Shown here in pieces: positions 25,235-49,541 of a DNA stretch of 64,000 nucleotides; within the stretch, counting starts at the first letter, position 1, and every line of letters starts with the position of its first letter. A program made the translations under genes and the position numbers. Source of the stretch: an uncultured Anaerolineaceae bacterium (GTDB lineage: Bacteria > Chloroflexota > Anaerolineae > Aggregatilineales > Phototrophicaceae); the NCBI GenBank assembly GCA_964652205.1, contig CAZZAO010000003.1, forward strand, positions 15,196-79,195, read 5' to 3'. The notes beneath the pieces are model-generated. The model had not been told where the DNA came from, did not search any database, and saw only the letters and a program-made list of their open reading frames with translations.

Positions 25235-25705
25235 CTACTTGCCGGAGAAAGCAGGAACCTGACTGAAGATGTCGTTCAGATCGTCGAGCGCGCGCTGAAT
25301 CCGCGCCAGATGATCGACCGGGATGGACGAAAACAACTCGCGCATCTTTTCTTCCCGGCGCTGATCGATCCGCTCCAGCAGGGCCATACCCTCATCGTTG
25401 ATCGAGATCAGCTTCTGGCGGCGATCTTCCGGGTTTTCGCGCCGCGTCAGCAGGCCGCGCTGAAGCAGTCGGTCGATTAACTGGCTGGCCGCAGGCTGCG
25501 ACAGCGTAATGACCGAAGCCAACTGCGAGACGGTCAGGAGTTCCTCACGATGACGGCTGAGATAGTAGAGCACCATGAACTGAGGCAGCGTGAAGTCGAG
25601 GTCCTGAATCGAGGTGAAATGGCCCATGACGCGGTCGGAAACGCCGGTCTGCATGGCGCGCATGGTTTCGATGATACTGTCGATAGCATCGGCCTTGTCG
25701 GTCAT
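25235..25705 (-). CDS. MarR-family transcriptional regulator
   Basis: 156 aa. wHTH LTVSQLASVITLSQPAASQLIDRLLQRGLLTRRENPEDRRQKLISINDEG. Confidence 0.9.
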   Translation of the reverse strand: MTDKADAIDSIIETMRAMQTGVSDRVMGHFTSIQDLDFTLPQFMVLYYLSRHREELLTVSQLASVITLSQPAASQLIDRLLQRGLLTRRENPEDRRQKLISINDEGMALLERIDQRREEKMRELFSSIPVDHLARIQRALDDLNDIFSQVPAFSGK

Positions 25706-25920: not shown

Positions 25921-27042
25921 ATGATCGACGTCAAAGAAGTCAAGGAACTGCTCGAACAAATCGGAGATCAAACACTCAGCCTGTACCTTGATGTCAGCGA
26001 AGGCAAGCTCGAAAATCAGGCGGTCGCGCCGCAGTGGAGCGTGTGGCTCAAGAATACGCTGCGCGATCTGGGCAGCGGCCTGACCCGTGAAGACGCTCAG
26101 GCATGGCCGCAGATTCGTGACCGGGTCGAAGGCTATTTCGACCCGTACAGCGCGGGCTACAAGCCGCAGGCGCGCGGGATTGTGCTGTTCACCAGTCCCT
26201 CGTATCAGCAGGCTTACGAGCTGCCGATCTCCTTCAAAAATCAGGCGTCGTTCGGCAAGCCCCACGTCGCGCCGCTGTTGTGGGCGATTGACGAGTACGA
26301 GCCGTATCTGGTCGCCATGGTCGATAAGGAAAAGGCGCGCTTTTTCAGCAGTTATCTGGCGTCCATCGACTTTCAGGACAGCCTCGAAATCGACCTCGAC
26401 CAATACGATTTCGCCGAGCGCCCGATGAGGAATGTCACCATCGGCGGCAACGAAGGCGGCGGTGGAACGAACAAGGAAGCGTGGCAGCGGATGATCAACG
26501 AGCACGAGCGGCGCTTCTACCGGCAGGTAGCGGATACGGCGGTTAAACTGGCCGACCAGCAGAAGGCCGAGCGCATCATCATCGCTGGCTCGGAAGACTC
26601 GCTGCACGAGGTCTACAACCTGTTCAGCGAGCACGATCAGACGCGAATCGCCGGGATGGCAGCCATCCCGATGCAGTCAACGACTGCCGAAATCTTCCAG
26701 CAGATTTTGCCGGTGGCGCAGGCGTTCGAGCGCGAGCAGGAGATGACGCTGGTTTCCGAAGTGATCGACTTCGCCCGATCAGGCGGGCGCGGCGCGCTGG
26801 GGCGCGAGGCGGTCGATAGGGCGATATCGATGCAGCGCGTCGAACGGCTGATCCTGCCGTGGCCGGTCGACAGCCCTTCGATGAATGAGTATCTGGAAAC
26901 GCTCGCTTACCGAGCGCTCCAGCTCAACAGTCAGGTTGAGCTGGTTCATGAGGCCGCCGCAGATCGACTGACAGCGGAAGGGGGCGTCGCGGCGCGGCTG
27001 TATTACGCCATCGACGCCCGACCGGACAGCGACGGACATTAA
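25921..27042 (+). CDS. Bacterial eRF1-fold protein (baeRF1 / host-attachment / VLRF1-like family), paralogue 1
   Basis: 373 aa. The central loop TIGGNEGGGGTNKEAWQRMINEHERRFYRQVADTA aligns with the eRF1 GGQSALRFARLR...Y.RKVAE region, but there is no GGQ. It is followed by an eRF1 domain-3-like ERIIIAGSEDSL... Confidence 0.75.
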   Translation: MIDVKEVKELLEQIGDQTLSLYLDVSEGKLENQAVAPQWSVWLKNTLRDLGSGLTREDAQAWPQIRDRVEGYFDPYSAGYKPQARGIVLFTSPSYQQAYELPISFKNQASFGKPHVAPLLWAIDEYEPYLVAMVDKEKARFFSSYLASIDFQDSLEIDLDQYDFAERPMRNVTIGGNEGGGGTNKEAWQRMINEHERRFYRQVADTAVKLADQQKAERIIIAGSEDSLHEVYNLFSEHDQTRIAGMAAIPMQSTTAEIFQQILPVAQAFEREQEMTLVSEVIDFARSGGRGALGREAVDRAISMQRVERLILPWPVDSPSMNEYLETLAYRALQLNSQVELVHEAAADRLTAEGGVAARLYYAIDARPDSDGH

Positions 27043-42498: not shown

Positions 42499-43384
42499 CG
42501 CCGTTCACCTGAACACGCGCCCGCAGCAGAGCCTGTGGTGGATGACGCTGTGCCAGTTTCAGCGCCATAAGCTGGCCGTCGCCAGCCTGATTGTGCTGAT
42601 TATCTTCGGCCTGCTGTCGATCTTCGCCAGCGTCATTTCGCCCTACAACCCGAACGACATCGACCCGCGCGCCGCCGGGGTTACGCGCGGCTTTCCGCAG
42701 CCCCCGACCGCCGAGCATCTCCTCGGCACGGACAGCTTCAACCGCGACCTGCTGGCCCGCGCGCTGTACGGGATGCGTGTCTCGCTGGCGGTCGGCGTGT
42801 TCGCCATGCTCATCAGCCTGCTTGCCGGGGTCACGGTCGGCGCGCTGGCGGGCTATGCCGGCGGGCTGCTCGACAACGTGCTGATGCGGCTGGTGGATAT
42901 TTTCCTGTCCGTGCCGAGCTTCCTGATCTTCCTGACGCTCAACGCGCTGCTGCCGCCGAGCATCTGGAACGTCGTCTTTATCCTCGGCTTCTTTAGCTGG
43001 ATGGACGTAGCGCGGCTGGTACGGGCGGAATTTCTGGGGCTGAAGGAGCGCGATTTCATTCTGGCGGCGCAGGCGTTGGGCGCGCCGCCGTGGCGGCTGA
43101 TCGTCAGTCATTTGCTGCCGAACGCGGTCGCGCCGGTGCTGGTCGCGGCGACGCTGGCGATTCCGGCGGCGATCCTGAGCGAATCGGCGTTGAGTTTCAT
43201 CGGCCTCGGCGTGCCGCCGCCGGACGCCAGCCTCGGCAATATTTTGCAGGACGCGAAAGCCTGGCTGACGAGCGCCTGGTGGATGTGGCTGACGCCGGGC
43301 CTGCTCATCAGCCTGATCGTGCTGGCGTTCAACTTCGACGGCGACGGCCTGCGCGACGCCCTTGACCCGACGCTGCGACGGTAA
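42491..43384 (+). CDS. ABC transporter permease (DppC/OppC-type)
   Basis: 297 aa. Overlaps the upstream permease gene by 8 nt. Contains ...FILAAQALGAPPWRLIVSHLLPNAVAP... Confidence 0.9.
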   Translation: MTDAVHLNTRPQQSLWWMTLCQFQRHKLAVASLIVLIIFGLLSIFASVISPYNPNDIDPRAAGVTRGFPQPPTAEHLLGTDSFNRDLLARALYGMRVSLAVGVFAMLISLLAGVTVGALAGYAGGLLDNVLMRLVDIFLSVPSFLIFLTLNALLPPSIWNVVFILGFFSWMDVARLVRAEFLGLKERDFILAAQALGAPPWRLIVSHLLPNAVAPVLVAATLAIPAAILSESALSFIGLGVPPPDASLGNILQDAKAWLTSAWWMWLTPGLLISLIVLAFNFDGDGLRDALDPTLRR

Positions 43385-43577
43385 ATACCTTCACCCTGTC
43401 GCGCCCCTGAGCGCGCGGGGCGAACACGCGACACAGGATGGGGACGGACATGATGGATCATGCCCGTCCTGAGCTACAGACCCGTTTAGCCTGCTCCTCA
43501 CAAAGTTGCCCCACGGATGGAACAGGCGGCGCTGTAATCGGGAACTGGCTGCTTTTTGACCTGCTGCCTGACCTTCG

Positions 43578-43907
43578 TCAGTAATGACGCTGCTGCGCGC
43601 GCCGGTCACGAATCTGTCGTTCAGCAGCCTCTAGAGCGCCATTCAAGGCGGCTCTGAACTGCTCACTTTGCTCAGTCGCGGCGATTTGCGCCGCTCCCAT
43701 ATAGACGACGATAGTGACTTCATAGATGTGGGGTGTCACACGAGCCTGCGCCGGCTGCTTGAAGTTAACAACCGCGCCTGAAATATCGGTGTAGCCCTCG
43801 GCCAGCTTGCTGAGTCGGTCGACCGCCAGAGTATAGTACTCGTTTTCACTTTTCTTGATGTCGTCGATTTCATTATTGAATTCGACCGGGAAATTCGCGC
43901 TGTCCAT
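43578..43907 (-). CDS. Short HPF/RaiA (YfiA)-family ribosome-associated protein-like (Ribosomal_S30AE fold), 109 aa
   Basis: Start taken at ATG 43907 (MDSANFPVEF), with AGAGGGGA upstream. The beta-alpha-beta-beta-beta-alpha pattern is present. The C-terminal helix EQSEQFRAALNGALEAAERQIRDRR parallels, from my recollection, E. coli HPF EGQDMYAAIDGLIDKLARQLTKHKDK. There is no long-HPF C-terminal domain. Confidence 0.65.
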   Translation of the reverse strand: MDSANFPVEFNNEIDDIKKSENEYYTLAVDRLSKLAEGYTDISGAVVNFKQPAQARVTPHIYEVTIVVYMGAAQIAATEQSEQFRAALNGALEAAERQIRDRRAQQRHY

Positions 43908-43994
43908 TGTCTGTCCCCTCTTTGAACTGCTTAACGGCACCAGTCCTCGCAGCAACCGGGTTTGGTGTCTGCCTTTTTGGCCGGTGGAACAGGC

Positions 43995-45164
43995 TTAATA
44001 GCGGAGAAGCGCCGCAGCAGGTGAAGTGGCTGGCATTTCCGCCAGTGGCAGCGCATAGACGATTCCGCCGTTTCGGAGAGTCTGCATCGCGGCAAAATCC
44101 AGCAGCGCGAGGTCATCTTCCTGGCTTTGTCCATCCTGATAATGAACAACTTCCCCGCTATCAGGATTGAAGATGCCCCAGACCTGCGTATCGACGGCCA
44201 GAATGAGTTTGTCTACGCGCCCGTAAAAGGCTGCCGCGACAATTTCTTCAATGCGATCCGTGGCGTTTTCCGTGACGGCAAGCTCGTGATATTGCTCGAT
44301 CACCTTTTCCATCGCCTGACGGAAGTAAGGCTCGACGATGGGCCAGGTCTGTTCCTGGAGTTCTTCAGGGCGCAGCAGATCAGGATTGCCTGTGACCCCT
44401 TCCGGCATGATATTCGCGTATTCGCTGACCTGACGGTAAATCGGTAGCAGGTAATCGACACCCGCCAGAACAAGCGGTGCCTGCTCCTCACGAAAGACTT
44501 CTTTCAGCCCGGCATCGACCACATTAAGAAACTGCTCGATCCTGACCTTCTGATCTTCATCGCCCGGCCCCTGTCCATGAAACATGGCCGCCCGTTTGCC
44601 GCCCTGGGCTGTACTCGGCGATGTCCCCGAATGGAATTGCAGGTGTTTTTGCAGATTATCGGACTTGAGAGCTTCGTCCAGACTCCCCGGTACACCCTCT
44701 GGCAAATCAATTTGACCGACGCTGTGCCGGGTTCCTTCAAACAAACGAACTTCATTCTGACTGATTGCCAGAATGTAATAATGTCCGTTGTTGGTGAATA
44801 ACGGTAGAACCGGCTTGACGTAATAGGACTGAGCGATGACGAGCAGTTCTTCAACGCGAAAAGGCAGGTGATAGTAATGGAAGTCATCCTGGGCGATAAA
44901 GACCGCCAGAGCATCACGCTGATGCTGCCAGAAGTACGGCGCATTCAGTAAGGCCTGCGCCGGTTGGAGCAAGGCGCTCACCTGACGAGGCCCCATGCCC
45001 CTGTCCAGCAGACGCAGCTCGGCTTCTCGAAGCAGGTTTTTGAAGCGGATCGGGTCTTGCTGAGTATCCTGACCGGCGCGATGGGTCGGCAGGAAAATCG
45101 AGATACTCGGACTCCCGGTTTGCTGCGCCAATTCCTTGATCTGCTCTAACGTCAAGTTTTCCAT
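43995..45164 (-). CDS. Bacterial eRF1-fold protein (baeRF1 family), paralogue 2
   Basis: 389 aa. RBS GGAGGGAG. N-terminal TLEQIKELAQQTGSPSISIFLPTHRAG..., typical of baeRF families. Central loop AAMFHGQGPGDEDQKVRIEQFLNVVDAGL at the GGQ-loop position, with no GGQ. Domain-3-like C-terminal region (LVLAGVDYLL...). Confidence 0.75.
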   Translation of the reverse strand: MENLTLEQIKELAQQTGSPSISIFLPTHRAGQDTQQDPIRFKNLLREAELRLLDRGMGPRQVSALLQPAQALLNAPYFWQHQRDALAVFIAQDDFHYYHLPFRVEELLVIAQSYYVKPVLPLFTNNGHYYILAISQNEVRLFEGTRHSVGQIDLPEGVPGSLDEALKSDNLQKHLQFHSGTSPSTAQGGKRAAMFHGQGPGDEDQKVRIEQFLNVVDAGLKEVFREEQAPLVLAGVDYLLPIYRQVSEYANIMPEGVTGNPDLLRPEELQEQTWPIVEPYFRQAMEKVIEQYHELAVTENATDRIEEIVAAAFYGRVDKLILAVDTQVWGIFNPDSGEVVHYQDGQSQEDDLALLDFAAMQTLRNGGIVYALPLAEMPATSPAAALLRY

Positions 45165-45299
45165 TAGGGACTCCCTCCGTTGATGGTAGGCGGACAGAGG
45201 AAGCCAGTATACGTTATAAATTATGAAATAGATAGCCCGAGATAAGCCGCTCGTGCTGGCCCAACTAACGGGCCATCGGTGACGTTGCCCCGCTCTACT

Positions 45300-46427
45300 T
45301 CACGGGCGCAGGCGGCGCTTGAGCGCGCGCAGCCTGTCAATCTGCGCGTCGATCAGCGGCTCCAGCGCGGAATAATCGGTGTCAGGATGCTTGCTGATCT
45401 GCTGCTCGACCTTCGTCAGCGCCAGCGTATGGGTGCTGAAGGCGCTGGCGGTGCGCTCGATGAATGAGGCGGGCGCGGAACGCCGTCTGGCGGGCGGTTT
45501 CCCCTCGGAACGTGAATTGTCCTTCGTGCGGAACAATTCGCGTTCCGATAGGTCCTGATCGTCGGCTCGGAGCCACTGCTCGTCGCTCAGGCCGAGGATG
45601 TCGCGGTAGCGGCTGAGGGCGGATCGACTGGTGACGCCGAGCGCTGACAGCAGGCGTTCATTCTGCCCGGACGGGACGCGCAGGCCGAGCACCTGCGCGT
45701 AAAAGGCGCGGTCGCTCTCCGATTCGTGGTAGAGCCGGAAAGGCGTCGTTTCGGCCAGCAAGTCCATCATCAGAATCGCGTACTGACGGGCGCGGGCGAC
45801 GGCATTGAGGTTGTCGCGGGCGCTGTTCTCGCTGGCCTGACGCCAGACATTCGGCGTAACTTCAGTCGCCGGAATCCGGGCGAAGCGCTCGTCGGCAAGG
45901 GCCGCGTACAGCAGGTGGAACGCCAGCCAGCGGCGCTCGCCCGTTTCGATGACGTAGACGTTATCGACTGCGCCGACCGTAATCGGGTTGAGCAGCCCGT
46001 CGTGAAAAATGCTCGACGCCAGATCAATCAACCGTACCAGGCTGGCTTCAAGCGTGGACAAGTTCTCGGAATCGTCGTCAGTTAGCAGGCGAGCGCCGCT
46101 GCCGGTAAGCAGCGCAGGCAGGTCGTAGCGCCGCCCACTTTCGGCCTCAATCGCCGTCAGCCAGCCATCGAAGGCCGACGCCAGATGGGCAGGATCGCTA
46201 TCCCATGTGGCGCGGACTTCCGATGGCAGGGCGCGGCGCGGCTGCGCGGGGTCGGGATAGATACTGGCGATGTCAATCGGCTTGGCGACCTGCCGCGACG
46301 ACTTGAGTCCCCGGCGCTCGCGCTGCGGATCGCCGTAGGTATCGGCATCGACCGACTGCGGCGAGGTGGGTTCTGGCTCCGGCTGAAGCGGCTCCCAGTT
46401 GGCAAAACCAAATTCCTTGCGCTTCAT
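45300..46427 (-). CDS. parB: ParB/Srx-domain protein (ParB-like partition protein, atypical)
   Basis: 375 aa. Box I-like IASIYPDPAQPRR and box II GERRWLA (CTP-binding motif region) are separated by an unusually long segment of about 60 aa. An HTH-like segment is present (SALSRYRDILGLSDEQW). ATGA overlap with parA. Confidence 0.75.
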   Translation of the reverse strand: MKRKEFGFANWEPLQPEPEPTSPQSVDADTYGDPQRERRGLKSSRQVAKPIDIASIYPDPAQPRRALPSEVRATWDSDPAHLASAFDGWLTAIEAESGRRYDLPALLTGSGARLLTDDDSENLSTLEASLVRLIDLASSIFHDGLLNPITVGAVDNVYVIETGERRWLAFHLLYAALADERFARIPATEVTPNVWRQASENSARDNLNAVARARQYAILMMDLLAETTPFRLYHESESDRAFYAQVLGLRVPSGQNERLLSALGVTSRSALSRYRDILGLSDEQWLRADDQDLSERELFRTKDNSRSEGKPPARRRSAPASFIERTASAFSTHTLALTKVEQQISKHPDTDYSALEPLIDAQIDRLRALKRRLRP

Positions 46428-47206
46428 GCCAGCTTCGCCTCAACTCGGTCGATCAGCGCCCAGGTTTCGGTCGTCGCGCCAGATTCAGGCGCATAGGCGA
46501 AGATCATCTTCTGCGCCCACGCCCGCTCAACCCAGACGGTGCGCTGGGTGATCGCCGGCCACATCAGGCCCTCGAAGCGCTTCTGAAGCTGCGCCAGACC
46601 GTGATCGTGGGCGTTGGTGTTGGCGCGGTACATCGTCGGCTGAATGCCCATGACGGCCATCGGGCGCAGGCCCTCGCGCTCGCGGCGGACGTTATTGGCC
46701 TCTTTATGCTCGATGCTGGCGGCGATTGCGTCGAGGCTCAGGCTCTCACATTCGGTCGGGTAAATCAGGCTGTCGCTGGCGAAGTAGACGACGGAGTGAA
46801 ACAGCGACGGCGTCGGCGGCGTGTCGATCACGACGACGTCAATATCGTCCTCGACTTCGCTCAGACGGTCGCGCAGCACAAAGACATCCTCCAGCAGCTC
46901 GGAGATGACGCGCGTCTCGACGTTGCTCGGCAGCATCCACAACGCGCCCTTGATCGTCCGGCCCCCGGCCTGATAGCGCTCGGCGGGAATCTCGCGGGTG
47001 ACATCCTCGAAGTCCGCGCCGCGCACCAGCAGATTGTACAGTCCGGCCTCTTTGGGCAGGCCGTAGCTCGACGCGACGTGACCCTGCGGGTCGCCGTCGA
47101 TAATCAGCACGCGCTGGCCGCGAATCGCCAGCCCGGCGGCAATGTGCGTGGCGAGGGTCGTCTTGCCGACGCCGCCCTTCTCGTTGACCAGCGATAAGAC
47201 GTGCAT
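46424..47206 (-). CDS. parA: ParA/Soj-family partition ATPase (short, plasmid-type)
   Basis: 260 aa. Deviant Walker A NEKGGVGKTT, IIDGDPQG, Walker B VVIDTPP. Confidence 0.9.
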   Translation of the reverse strand: MHVLSLVNEKGGVGKTTLATHIAAGLAIRGQRVLIIDGDPQGHVASSYGLPKEAGLYNLLVRGADFEDVTREIPAERYQAGGRTIKGALWMLPSNVETRVISELLEDVFVLRDRLSEVEDDIDVVVIDTPPTPSLFHSVVYFASDSLIYPTECESLSLDAIAASIEHKEANNVRREREGLRPMAVMGIQPTMYRANTNAHDHGLAQLQKRFEGLMWPAITQRTVWVERAWAQKMIFAYAPESGATTETWALIDRVEAKLA

Positions 47207-47592: not shown

Positions 47593-49233
47593 TTAGATTT
47601 CCGAGAATGGATTCCCGGCGATATCGACGAAGCGCAGGTGCTTGAGTTCCTTACGCGCGTAGTTGAGCTGCCACGGCGTCTCGAACAGGATCACCCAGCG
47701 GTCATGATCGTCGCGGGTGCGAATGCTCTGCATCGGCCAGTGCGCGGCGCGAATGTCGTCCTCATCGCCTTCGATCCACGCCGCCACGCTCGATGGCATC
47801 AGGTCGATGGACGTCTCGACGTTATATTCGGCCTGAAGGCGCGAAGCGACCACCTCGAACTGAAGCTGGCCGACCGCGCACAGGATCGGCTCGTGGCGCG
47901 TCGAATCGACGCCGTACAGCACCTGCACCACCCCTTCCTGCAAAAGCTGTTCGAGTCCCTTATTGAACTGTTTGTATTTCTCGATGCTGACGTTCCGCAG
48001 CCGCGCGAACACTTCGGGCTGGAAACGCGGGATCGACGGGTAGCTGAAGCTCTCGCCGACGCAGACCGTGTCGCCAATCGTGAAGATGCCCGGATTGCTC
48101 AGGCCGATGACATCGCCCGCGAACGCTTCCTCGACCGTCTCTCGGTCACGCGCGAACAGCCGATGAGGCCGCGTCATGCGGACTTTGCGCCCCAGGCGCG
48201 GATGCGAAACGGTCATGTCCTTCTCGAAGCGCCCCGAACAGATGCGCATAAACGCCAGACTGTCGCGGTGCTGCGGGTCCATGTTGGCCTGAATCTTGAA
48301 GACGATGCCGCTGAAAGCGCCGCTCGTCGGCTCGACCGGGCCGATGCTGCTTTCGCGCGGGCGCGGGGACGGCGCGAAGGCGCTCAAGGCTTCGAGAAAC
48401 GGCTCGACGCCGAAGTTGTTGAGCGCGCTGCCGAAGTAAACCGGCGTCAGCGTACCGTGAGCGAAAGCTTCCGGGTCGAACGGCGCGCCCGCGCCCGCTA
48501 GCAGCTCGGCGTCGTCGATCAACTGATGATGCGCCCGCTCGCCAATTGTCGCCTTCAACAGCGGGTCGTAGAGGTCAGTCACCTGCACCGGAGCGCGGAA
48601 CTTGCCGCGCGCCGTCCGCTCGAACAGCAGCACCTGCTGGTTTTGCAGGTCGTAGACGCCCTGAAAATCCGGGCCGCTGCCAATCGGCCAGTTCATCGGC
48701 GAGACGCGCAGCGCCAGCACCCGCTCGATCTCGTCGAGCAGTTCGAGCGGGTCGCGGCCCGGACGGTCGAGCTTGTTGATGAAGGTCAGAATCGGCAGCT
48801 TGCGCATCCGGCAGACCTCGAACAGCTTTCGGGTCTGCGGCTCGATACCTTTGGCGCTGTCGAGCACCATCACGGCGCTGTCGACGGCCATCAGCGTGCG
48901 GTAAGTGTCTTCGCTGAAATCGCGGTGGCCGGGCGTGTCGAGCAGGTTGAAGATGCGGTCTTCGTACTCGAATTGCAGCACCGATGAGGTGATCGAGATG
49001 CCGCGCTGCTGTTCCATCGCCATCCAGTCCGAGGTCGCGCTGCGCTGGTTTTTGGCGGCGCGCACCGACCCGGCCTGATTGACCGCTCCAGCGTAGAGCA
49101 GCAGCTTCTCAGTCAGCGTCGTTTTACCGGCGTCCGGGTGTGAGATGATGGCGAACGTCCGGCGGCGCTGAATTTCCCGCTGAAGTTCGGTACCGGGATT
49201 GATCGTCGTAATCGCAGGGGCAGGTTGTAACAT
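47593..49233 (-). CDS. prfC: Peptide chain release factor 3 (translational GTPase)
   Basis: Start taken at ATG 49233 (MLQPAPAITT...RRRTFAIISHPDAGKTTLTEKLLL). G-motifs AHPDAGKT/DTPGH/NKLD (here ISHPDAGKT, LLDTPGHRDF, INKLD). Collinear with my recollection of E. coli PrfC over the full length. Confidence 0.95.
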   Translation of the reverse strand: MLQPAPAITTINPGTELQREIQRRRTFAIISHPDAGKTTLTEKLLLYAGAVNQAGSVRAAKNQRSATSDWMAMEQQRGISITSSVLQFEYEDRIFNLLDTPGHRDFSEDTYRTLMAVDSAVMVLDSAKGIEPQTRKLFEVCRMRKLPILTFINKLDRPGRDPLELLDEIERVLALRVSPMNWPIGSGPDFQGVYDLQNQQVLLFERTARGKFRAPVQVTDLYDPLLKATIGERAHHQLIDDAELLAGAGAPFDPEAFAHGTLTPVYFGSALNNFGVEPFLEALSAFAPSPRPRESSIGPVEPTSGAFSGIVFKIQANMDPQHRDSLAFMRICSGRFEKDMTVSHPRLGRKVRMTRPHRLFARDRETVEEAFAGDVIGLSNPGIFTIGDTVCVGESFSYPSIPRFQPEVFARLRNVSIEKYKQFNKGLEQLLQEGVVQVLYGVDSTRHEPILCAVGQLQFEVVASRLQAEYNVETSIDLMPSSVAAWIEGDEDDIRAAHWPMQSIRTRDDHDRWVILFETPWQLNYARKELKHLRFVDIAGNPFSEI

Positions 49234-49541
49234 GAGGGGTCCCTCATACTCAAGCGCGGCATGGCAATGGCTGAAGCGCGGAAACGTCTGGCAAAGCTGG
49301 AGTCGCAGCCAGCGAACGATCATCCCTCGCGGACAGACATTCCATGGACTCCTAAGAGTGAAGGTCGAACCGATTCGGTTGGGCCGTGGGCTTCACGCAG
49401 CGCGGCGGAAAGCCCGCCGCCATGAGGAGCGAATTATAGTCGCCGAAGGACTCAAAGGCCAGAGGGAACCGACTCGGCAATCGACGGTTTATTGTGACTG
49501 GGCCTTTATGTTATCGGCGGCAAAGGGAGCGTACCGAAAAA

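Follow-up and report, generated by a model that had tools for sequence, protein, structure and literature searches.

Introduction

Genomic linkage between baeRF-1 genes and genes for the ribosome-associated protein HPF was described in 2019 in a computational study, along with a model in which the baeRF-1 protein is a non-catalytic inhibitor of the ribosomal A site that acts with HPF (Burroughs and Aravind, Int J Mol Sci, PMC6514570). The same study tied baeRF-1 clades to biological conflicts and reported that baeRF-1 genes spread by lateral transfer (PMC6514570), as do extra hpf copies (bioRxiv 10.1101/2025.11.04.686544). Balon (AOC03_06830) was later found by cryo-electron microscopy (cryo-EM) as a hibernation factor on the ribosomes of Psychrobacter urativorans (Helena-Bueno et al., Nature 2024, PMC10901736). 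Balon and RaiA were solved together on the P. urativorans 70S ribosome (PDB 8rd8; also 8rdv/8rdw), in a geometry that permits simultaneous binding; Balon can bind ribosomes still bearing peptidyl-tRNA, whose nascent chain stays intact, and Balon genes most often adjoin RaiA genes (PMC10901736). The mycobacterial Balon homologues MSMEG_1130 and Rv2629 (PDB 8v9j/8v9l/8v9k) likewise have the aeRF1 fold and are A-site hibernation factors. Here we analyze a pair of adjacent genes, encoding proteins of 389 and 109 residues, in a 64,000-nt stretch ("the window") of contig CAZZAO010000003.1 from an uncultured Anaerolineaceae bacterium of the phylum Chloroflexota, and argue that the two genes are likely to form a ribosome-hibernation unit of the Balon plus RaiA/HPF kind. 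An original prediction, made from the DNA sequence alone, had taken the pair for a candidate ribosome rescue or hibernation module; its remark that no biochemical characterization of such proteins was known is outdated, cryo-EM, knock-out and in vitro data having been published in 2024 (PMC10901736).

Results

The two open reading frames have the lengths and the 87-nt spacing originally given and lie on one strand, the minus strand, which had gone unstated. The best Pfam family of the 389-aa protein is baeRF_family3 (PF18845), at 163.7 bits against a cut-off of 31.5, which is likewise the best Pfam family of P. urativorans Balon. Its best NCBIfam model is NF052287, 'AOC03_06830 family ribosome hibernation factor' (E 4.1e-52, 177.9 bits), and the match spans model positions 1-361 of 361. 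The sole match in a sequence search of the PDB was Balon chain 8rd8_B (E 1.3e-18), with residues 9-389 of the window protein aligned end to end on residues 5-369; the two proteins are similar in length (389 vs 369 aa) and share 24% identity by BLASTP (E 1e-24). A profile made from 32 relatives matched 8rd8_B at E 5.8e-28 and the MSMEG_1130 Balon chain 8v9j_z at 8.5e-5, and the NCBIfam model of the MSMEG_1130 Balon family, NF052288, matched the 389-aa protein at E 7.7e-4. The mycobacterial proteins are thus much more distant from it than Balon is.

An AlphaFold2 (AF2) model of the 389-aa protein was built from a 32-sequence alignment whose members are 68-100% identical to the query, and was used for Foldseek ranking only, with no claims at the level of loops. 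Against the PDB, the matches with E ≤1e-3 were five Balon chains only; 8v9l_z and 8v9j_z were also matched. Neither eRF1 nor Pelota nor Vms1 gave a significant PDB match to the protein by sequence, profile, or Foldseek. Residues 169-203, which bear on the question of a lasso loop around A2602 or a bL27 trap, were modeled with a predicted local distance difference test score (pLDDT) below 50.

The eRF1-like organization lacking GGQ that had been proposed for this protein is borne out, and the loop and helix strings quoted for it are residues 192-206 (AAMFHGQGPGDEDQK) and 207-220 (VRIEQFLNVVDAGL). The 389-aa protein was searched for the catalytic GGQ motif and the stop-codon motif NIKS, and neither is present; both are also lost from Balon. 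At the GGQ position, the loop on the side of the peptidyl-transferase centre reads FHG[Q/H]GPGDE in the window clade versus GDGGSDRS in Balon. Across the 32 relatives F195-H196-G197 is invariant and G199 is conserved, while residue 198 alternates between Gln and His, which speaks against a catalytic glutamine. The possibility that HGQ is a degenerate GGQ was considered, and was rejected because Q198 is His in many relatives.

The N-domain loop reads THR-AGQDTQ-QDPI in the 389-aa protein and THR-EHPAND-QDPI in Balon, equal in length and in frame, and P26-T27-H28-R29 is invariant in the window protein's clade. In the C-domain, a β-hairpin is predicted (AF2 strands 329-332 and 339-343, local pLDDT ~50-60) in which W329, G330, and F332 are invariant; this predicted two-strand insert, residues 329-343, falls where Balon bears its EF-Tu-binding hairpin.

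The 109-aa protein matched Pfam Ribosomal_S30AE (PF02482) over residues 29-105 with 34.5 bits, above the gathering cut-off of 23.7, so that Pfam profiles recognize both members of the pair. Its length and start are kept in ~120 relatives, which are 70-80% identical and nearly all exactly 109 aa long, and several of which already bear the name 'HPF/RaiA family ribosome-associated protein' at NCBI or JGI. The subfamily, here termed HPF-109, is small: a profile search of 1.84 billion proteins gave 159 clusters (50% identity) at E ≤1e-3. Searches of the PDB by sequence and profile were weak, with no match by phmmer and, for the profile, a RaiA-domain protein (9i5v) at 8e-4 and Staphylococcus aureus HPF at 0.22, so that a fold comparison was needed to place the protein.

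The AF2 model of the 109-aa protein (pLDDT 76.7; predicted template modeling score, pTM, 0.70) has the topology E8-12 H23-36 E42-50 E63-70 E73-80 H84-108, the β-α-β-β-β-α order of HPF/YfiA. Foldseek ranks 1-35 in the PDB were all HPF, RaiA, YfiA, or pY (TM score 0.55-0.83, probability 1.00), among them E. coli HPF (6h4n_x, 2rql), V. cholerae HPF (4hei), and YfiA (4v8i); rank 2 was 8rd8_D, the RaiA bound beside Balon (E 1.1e-5, TM score 0.68-0.71). Like the short HPF/RaiA proteins, the window protein is ~100 aa long, and the end of its C-terminal helix is basic; its computed isoelectric point is 5.1, and unlike the fold, its sequence is far from the solved HPFs (identity 11-17% only). The model and the lengths of the relatives agree that the protein stops right after helix 2 and so, as had been proposed, is without the C-terminal dimerization domain of the long, 100S-forming HPFs that are usual outside Gammaproteobacteria.

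Scanning one genome per GTDB species returned 13 loci (L001-L013), all in Chloroflexota metagenome-assembled genomes from Anaerolineales, Thermoflexales, Aggregatilineales, Caldilineaceae, and 'Chloroflexia'; 12 of them hold a complete Balon-type gene. An HPF-109 gene lies 44-215 nt downstream of the Balon-type gene, on the same strand, in seven of the 12 complete loci; across relatives the spacer measures 44-230 nt. Three further look-ups anchored on the Balon-type gene found the pair in one (the complete genome CP129480.1) and no pair in two, giving 8/15 related Chloroflexota loci in total. In the reverse direction, all three HPF-109 relatives that were looked up on long contigs sit directly after a baeRF_family3 gene. 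The arrangement occurs at L003-L005, L007, L008, L010, L011, L015, L019, L020, and L022, so that the adjacency, whose conservation had been raised as a check, recurs, with gene order and orientation unchanged, at no fewer than 11 distinct loci that otherwise have unrelated neighbors. Pairwise identities of the Balon-type proteins correlate with those of the HPF proteins over 11 loci (Mantel r 0.71, p 2e-4), which indicates that the two proteins are inherited together, such co-variation being expected for any two genes with a common history.

Genes for stress responses and proteostasis recur near the pairs (CsbD, YtxH, Transgly_assoc, dodecin, DnaJ, and ClpB), as do genes for a small RelA_SpoT synthetase, BON and PRC-barrel proteins, and a sigma-70 factor. 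Neither prfC nor ParA, ParB, or the permease gene of the window recurs in the 13 GTDB loci by tblastn, and no ParA, ParB, or translational-GTPase neighbors are listed in the Pfam gene tables from subsequent look-ups. A role for prfC and ParA/ParB as parts of the module was therefore rejected, as they are not kept next to the pair in related loci, and the proximity of prfC looks coincidental.

Some related loci carry irregular copies of these genes. At L004 (8233-8466) and L005 (5404-5529), the intact HPF gene is followed ~0.9 kb further downstream by short fragments that match only the C-terminal helix of HPF-109 (profile positions 73-109 and 90-109, respectively); a duplicated copy may have left these remnants. 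On the long metagenome contigs of L018 (3861-4905) and L020 (3809-4955), gene prediction divides the Balon-type gene into two overlapping parts (113+244 aa and 246+151 aa, respectively). In the near-identical locus L019 the gene is intact (380 aa), and the splits are probably assembly frameshifts rather than pseudogenes.

The original reading noted by eye that both genes were lower in G+C than their neighbors and cast few antisense shadow ORFs, and took this as a hint of separate ancestry; computed values support each of these points. The G+C content of the pair is 0.548 vs a window mean of 0.629, the lowest among all 1587-nt sliding windows (0.24th percentile, ~3.3 standard deviations under the mean). 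The difference lies in third codon positions, whose G+C is 0.608 and 0.627 in the two genes vs 0.77-0.89 in eight neighboring genes; that of first and second positions is ordinary. The longest antisense ORF over the pair is 106 aa vs 225-396 aa in the neighbors, and same-strand alternative-frame ORFs reach 146 aa.

Across hosts, the G+C content of the Balon-type gene is 0.48-0.55 and that of its flanks 0.48-0.66, so that the gene deviates where the G+C content of the host is high (the window, L001, L002, and L013) and nowhere else. At L021 (1-10363) and L022 (397-5201), a PRC-barrel gene comes after an orthologous Balon-HPF pair, and transposases and a serine resolvase flank the three genes; the insertion sequence-type transposases are rve, Transposase_mut, IS21 IstB, and IS110. 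This layout suggests that the L021/L022 pair is carried on a composite mobile element. The composition, the transposase-flanked ortholog, and an upstream block shared with L011 (see below) all fit lateral acquisition, the probable source of the window's pair being a Chloroflexota donor of ~50% G+C. Alternatively, selection for a fixed codon composition may account for the constant G+C content of the gene.

The layout of the unit and of its surroundings is given in Table 1. The start codons of both genes are preceded by candidate ribosome-binding signals. For the HPF gene this is a Shine-Dalgarno-like GAGGGGA (43914-43920), 6 nt ahead of the ATG, and for the Balon-type gene a strong Shine-Dalgarno sequence, GGAGGGAG (45171-45178), which contains GGAGG. 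An AT-rich, promoter-like block, TATCTATTTCATAATTTATAACGTATACTGGCTTCCTCTGTCC (45192-45234), lies upstream of the Balon-type gene and occurs near-verbatim in the orthologous locus L011, which makes it a candidate promoter; a strict sigma-70 consensus scan of 43300-45500 gave no promoter. A terminator scan of the same interval gave one intragenic terminator-like site only, and shuffled sequences gave more. Since the spacer holds neither a terminator nor unusual structure (fold z-score -0.77), the Balon-type and HPF genes are probably co-transcribed as a bicistronic unit, separate from parAB. The GC-rich hairpin beyond the HPF gene lies 109 nt past the stop codon, between convergent genes; it is without a U-tract, the region has a fold z-score of -3.15, and it is a possible terminator. 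Rfam gave no match in the whole window.

Table 1. Positions of the gene pair, its non-coding elements, and neighboring genes in the window
Feature	Position	Strand	Remarks
Balon-type ribosome hibernation factor gene	43995..45164	-	389 aa; aeRF1-fold, Pfam baeRF_family3
Short HPF/RaiA-type (S30AE fold) gene	43578..43907	-	109 aa; without C-terminal dimerization domain; small divergent subfamily
Spacer between Balon-type and HPF genes	43908..43994	-	87 nt
Intergenic region upstream of Balon-type gene	45165..45299	-	135 nt; G+C 0.53; AT-rich
GC-rich hairpin (candidate terminator)	43442..43469	-	perfect 12 bp; GGACGGGCAUGA-UCCA-UCAUGUCCGUCC
ParB-like gene	45300-46427	-	375 aa; weak ParB_N match, 25.6 bits, just below Pfam cut-off
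ParA ATPase gene	46424-47206	-	overlaps ParB-like gene by 4 nt
prfC (RF3)	47593-49323	-	NF001964, E 1e-223; three genes upstream of pair
Second eRF1-fold paralogue	25921-27042	+	Pfam baeRF_family10

In six Anaerolineales loci (L004:5900-5975, L005:2900-2960, L007, L008, L010, and L019), the Balon-type gene is preceded by a conserved, ~75-nt non-coding block, TTGAGnnTAATATCnATATTnnTATAnGAnTGTTnCGTnTATnTCnTnGCGAGGTAA, which differs from the block common to the window and L011. It contains the palindromic half-sites AATATCnATATT and TACGAn5TCGT, and may serve as operator and promoter together.

The presence of prfC upstream in the same orientation, noted in the original prediction, was verified. 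As listed, the prfC ORF begins ~45 codons before the RF3 profile (match, residues 46-568), and translation probably starts at an internal Met, e.g., MLQPAPA.... The ParA and ParB-like genes (45300-47206, minus strand), which stand between prfC and the pair, have a normal G+C content (0.65); they may be an orphan partition pair, or one of chromosomal or plasmid origin.

The second eRF1-fold paralogue was likewise found to be real, and is the only additional copy that turned up when the window was searched for a second HPF or further Balon genes. A MarR gene (25235-25705, minus strand) is divergent from it. Its nearest NCBIfam model is NF052288 (E 3e-24, far under the cut-off), so that it stands closer to the MSMEG_1130/Rv2629 branch than the 389-aa protein does, and it has a weak Pelota match in the PDB; its G+C content is normal (0.606) and no HPF gene adjoins it. 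Family 10 was picked out as possibly catalytic because of a conserved Gln (Burroughs and Aravind, PMC6514570). Many relatives of the window paralogue have the loop GGH-x-[LI]TQGSNR, but the window copy reads GGNEGGGGTNKE, without Gln.

Discussion

The gene pair most probably constitutes a ribosome-hibernation unit of the type in which Balon acts beside RaiA/HPF. The two-gene link and the role are those of the published baeRF-1/HPF association (PMC6514570), to which the window adds one Chloroflexota instance. The 389-aa protein resembles Balon in its best family, its full-length alignment, its lost motifs, the THR...QDPI frame around the N-domain loop, a predicted C-domain insert, and the position of its gene beside an HPF/RaiA gene in a stress context, and differs in host (Chloroflexota vs Gammaproteobacteria).

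Homology to the Balon complexes 8rd8, 8rdv, and 8rdw allows a mechanism to be proposed. In starvation, stationary phase, or other stress, the unit would be transcribed from its own AT-rich promoter region. The 389-aa protein would enter the ribosomal A site, where the N-domain loop past the conserved PTHR would touch the decoding centre, leaving the mRNA channel unused, and the middle-domain loop FHG[Q/H]GPGDE, in the place of GGQ, would lie beside the peptidyl-transferase centre with no hydrolysis of peptidyl-tRNA. The C-domain β-hairpin would contact EF-Tu. The 109-aa S30AE-fold protein could occupy the same ribosome simultaneously, binding the 30S subunit across the mRNA/tRNA path, and both proteins would then keep the ribosome inactive, with its active centres protected, until the cell grows again.

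Several observations weigh against this assignment. With 177.9 bits, the 389-aa protein misses the curated NF052287 equivalog cut-off of 330 bits, whereas P. urativorans Balon scores 506.7 bits; it is thus a divergent homologue outside the curated equivalog set, whose functional equivalence with Balon is not guaranteed. The Balon 'HP motif' THREHPANDQDPI reads THRAGQDTQQDPI in the 389-aa protein, His-Pro being replaced by Gly-Gln. The AF2 model of this protein is poor (pLDDT 53, TM score to Balon ~0.26). The 109-aa protein is also divergent: it fails the yfiA equivalog model TIGR00741 (24.3 bits, cut-off 40.9), and functional equivalence with HPF/RaiA is not guaranteed. Adjacency of the two genes is absent at L001, L002, L006, L009, L012, L023/24, and L025.

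The original prediction placed an A-site factor and a 30S binder on stalled or dormant ribosomes. The part of it that concerns dormancy is upheld by the homology to 8rd8; the part that concerns rescue is not. A rescue module, whose eRF1-fold protein would recognize stalled ribosomes and release or recycle them much as Pelota/Dom34 or Vms1 do, helped by the small protein, we consider quite improbable. The aeRF1 superfamily fold, the three-domain layout, and the Gly-rich HGQGPG loop at the GGQ position would all suit a rescue factor, and Balon can indeed bind ribosomes with peptidyl-tRNA (PMC10901736). However, GGQ itself is missing and Q198 alternates with His, the solved Balon leaves the nascent chain intact, and eRF1, Pelota, and Vms1 give no significant sequence or fold match. 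The partner gene, moreover, encodes a hibernation factor and not a recycling ATPase or GTPase.

A conflict or anti-phage system, in which the pair would stop translation upon infection or attack by ribosome-targeting effectors and would travel as a mobile defense cassette, is very improbable. The tie between baeRF-1 clades and biological conflicts (PMC6514570), the foreign composition of the pair, and the orthologous pair set between transposases and a resolvase at L021/L022 are what such a system might show, but neither protein matched the anti-phage models of PADLOC-DB 2.0, a nuclease, sensor, or toxin partner is absent, and the conserved neighbors are general stress and proteostasis genes and not defense genes. 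It is extremely improbable that the pair is a chance neighborhood or belongs to a termination-linked cluster with prfC. The position of prfC, three genes upstream on the same strand, and the missing adjacency in about half of the Balon-anchored loci could be read in this way; on the other hand, the pair recurs in at least 11 distinct loci with otherwise unrelated neighbors, tblastn found prfC, ParA, ParB, or the permease gene again in 0/13 GTDB loci, and a 135-nt intergenic region with a conserved promoter-like block parts the pair from parB.

Beyond a hibernation unit of the Balon plus RaiA/HPF kind, a more specialized system is conceivable but doubtful. In such a system, the Chloroflexota baeRF_family3 clade and the acidic 109-aa S30AE protein dedicated to it might together make up a hibernation cassette that is complete in itself, moves laterally between genomes, and has a conserved promoter or operator of its own. 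The two proteins might have co-evolved into obligate partners that perhaps touch each other on the ribosome, with a decoding-centre contact unlike the Balon HP motif, and in recipient genomes the cassette might add to the canonical long HPF or take its place.

For pairs of this kind, mechanism, genomic linkage, and spread by lateral transfer are already on record in the literature, and the window represents a further, divergent example of a known system. It nevertheless has value for annotation: close relatives of the 389-aa protein, where they are named, are labeled 'hypothetical protein', and both they and the window copy can now be named Balon-type hibernation factors. The locus also brings Anaerolineae-type Chloroflexota, environmental bacteria that grow slowly and in whose ecology dormancy is important, into the range of the Balon + RaiA pairing, and illustrates clearly how the two genes behave as a unit that is foreign in composition and inherited together.

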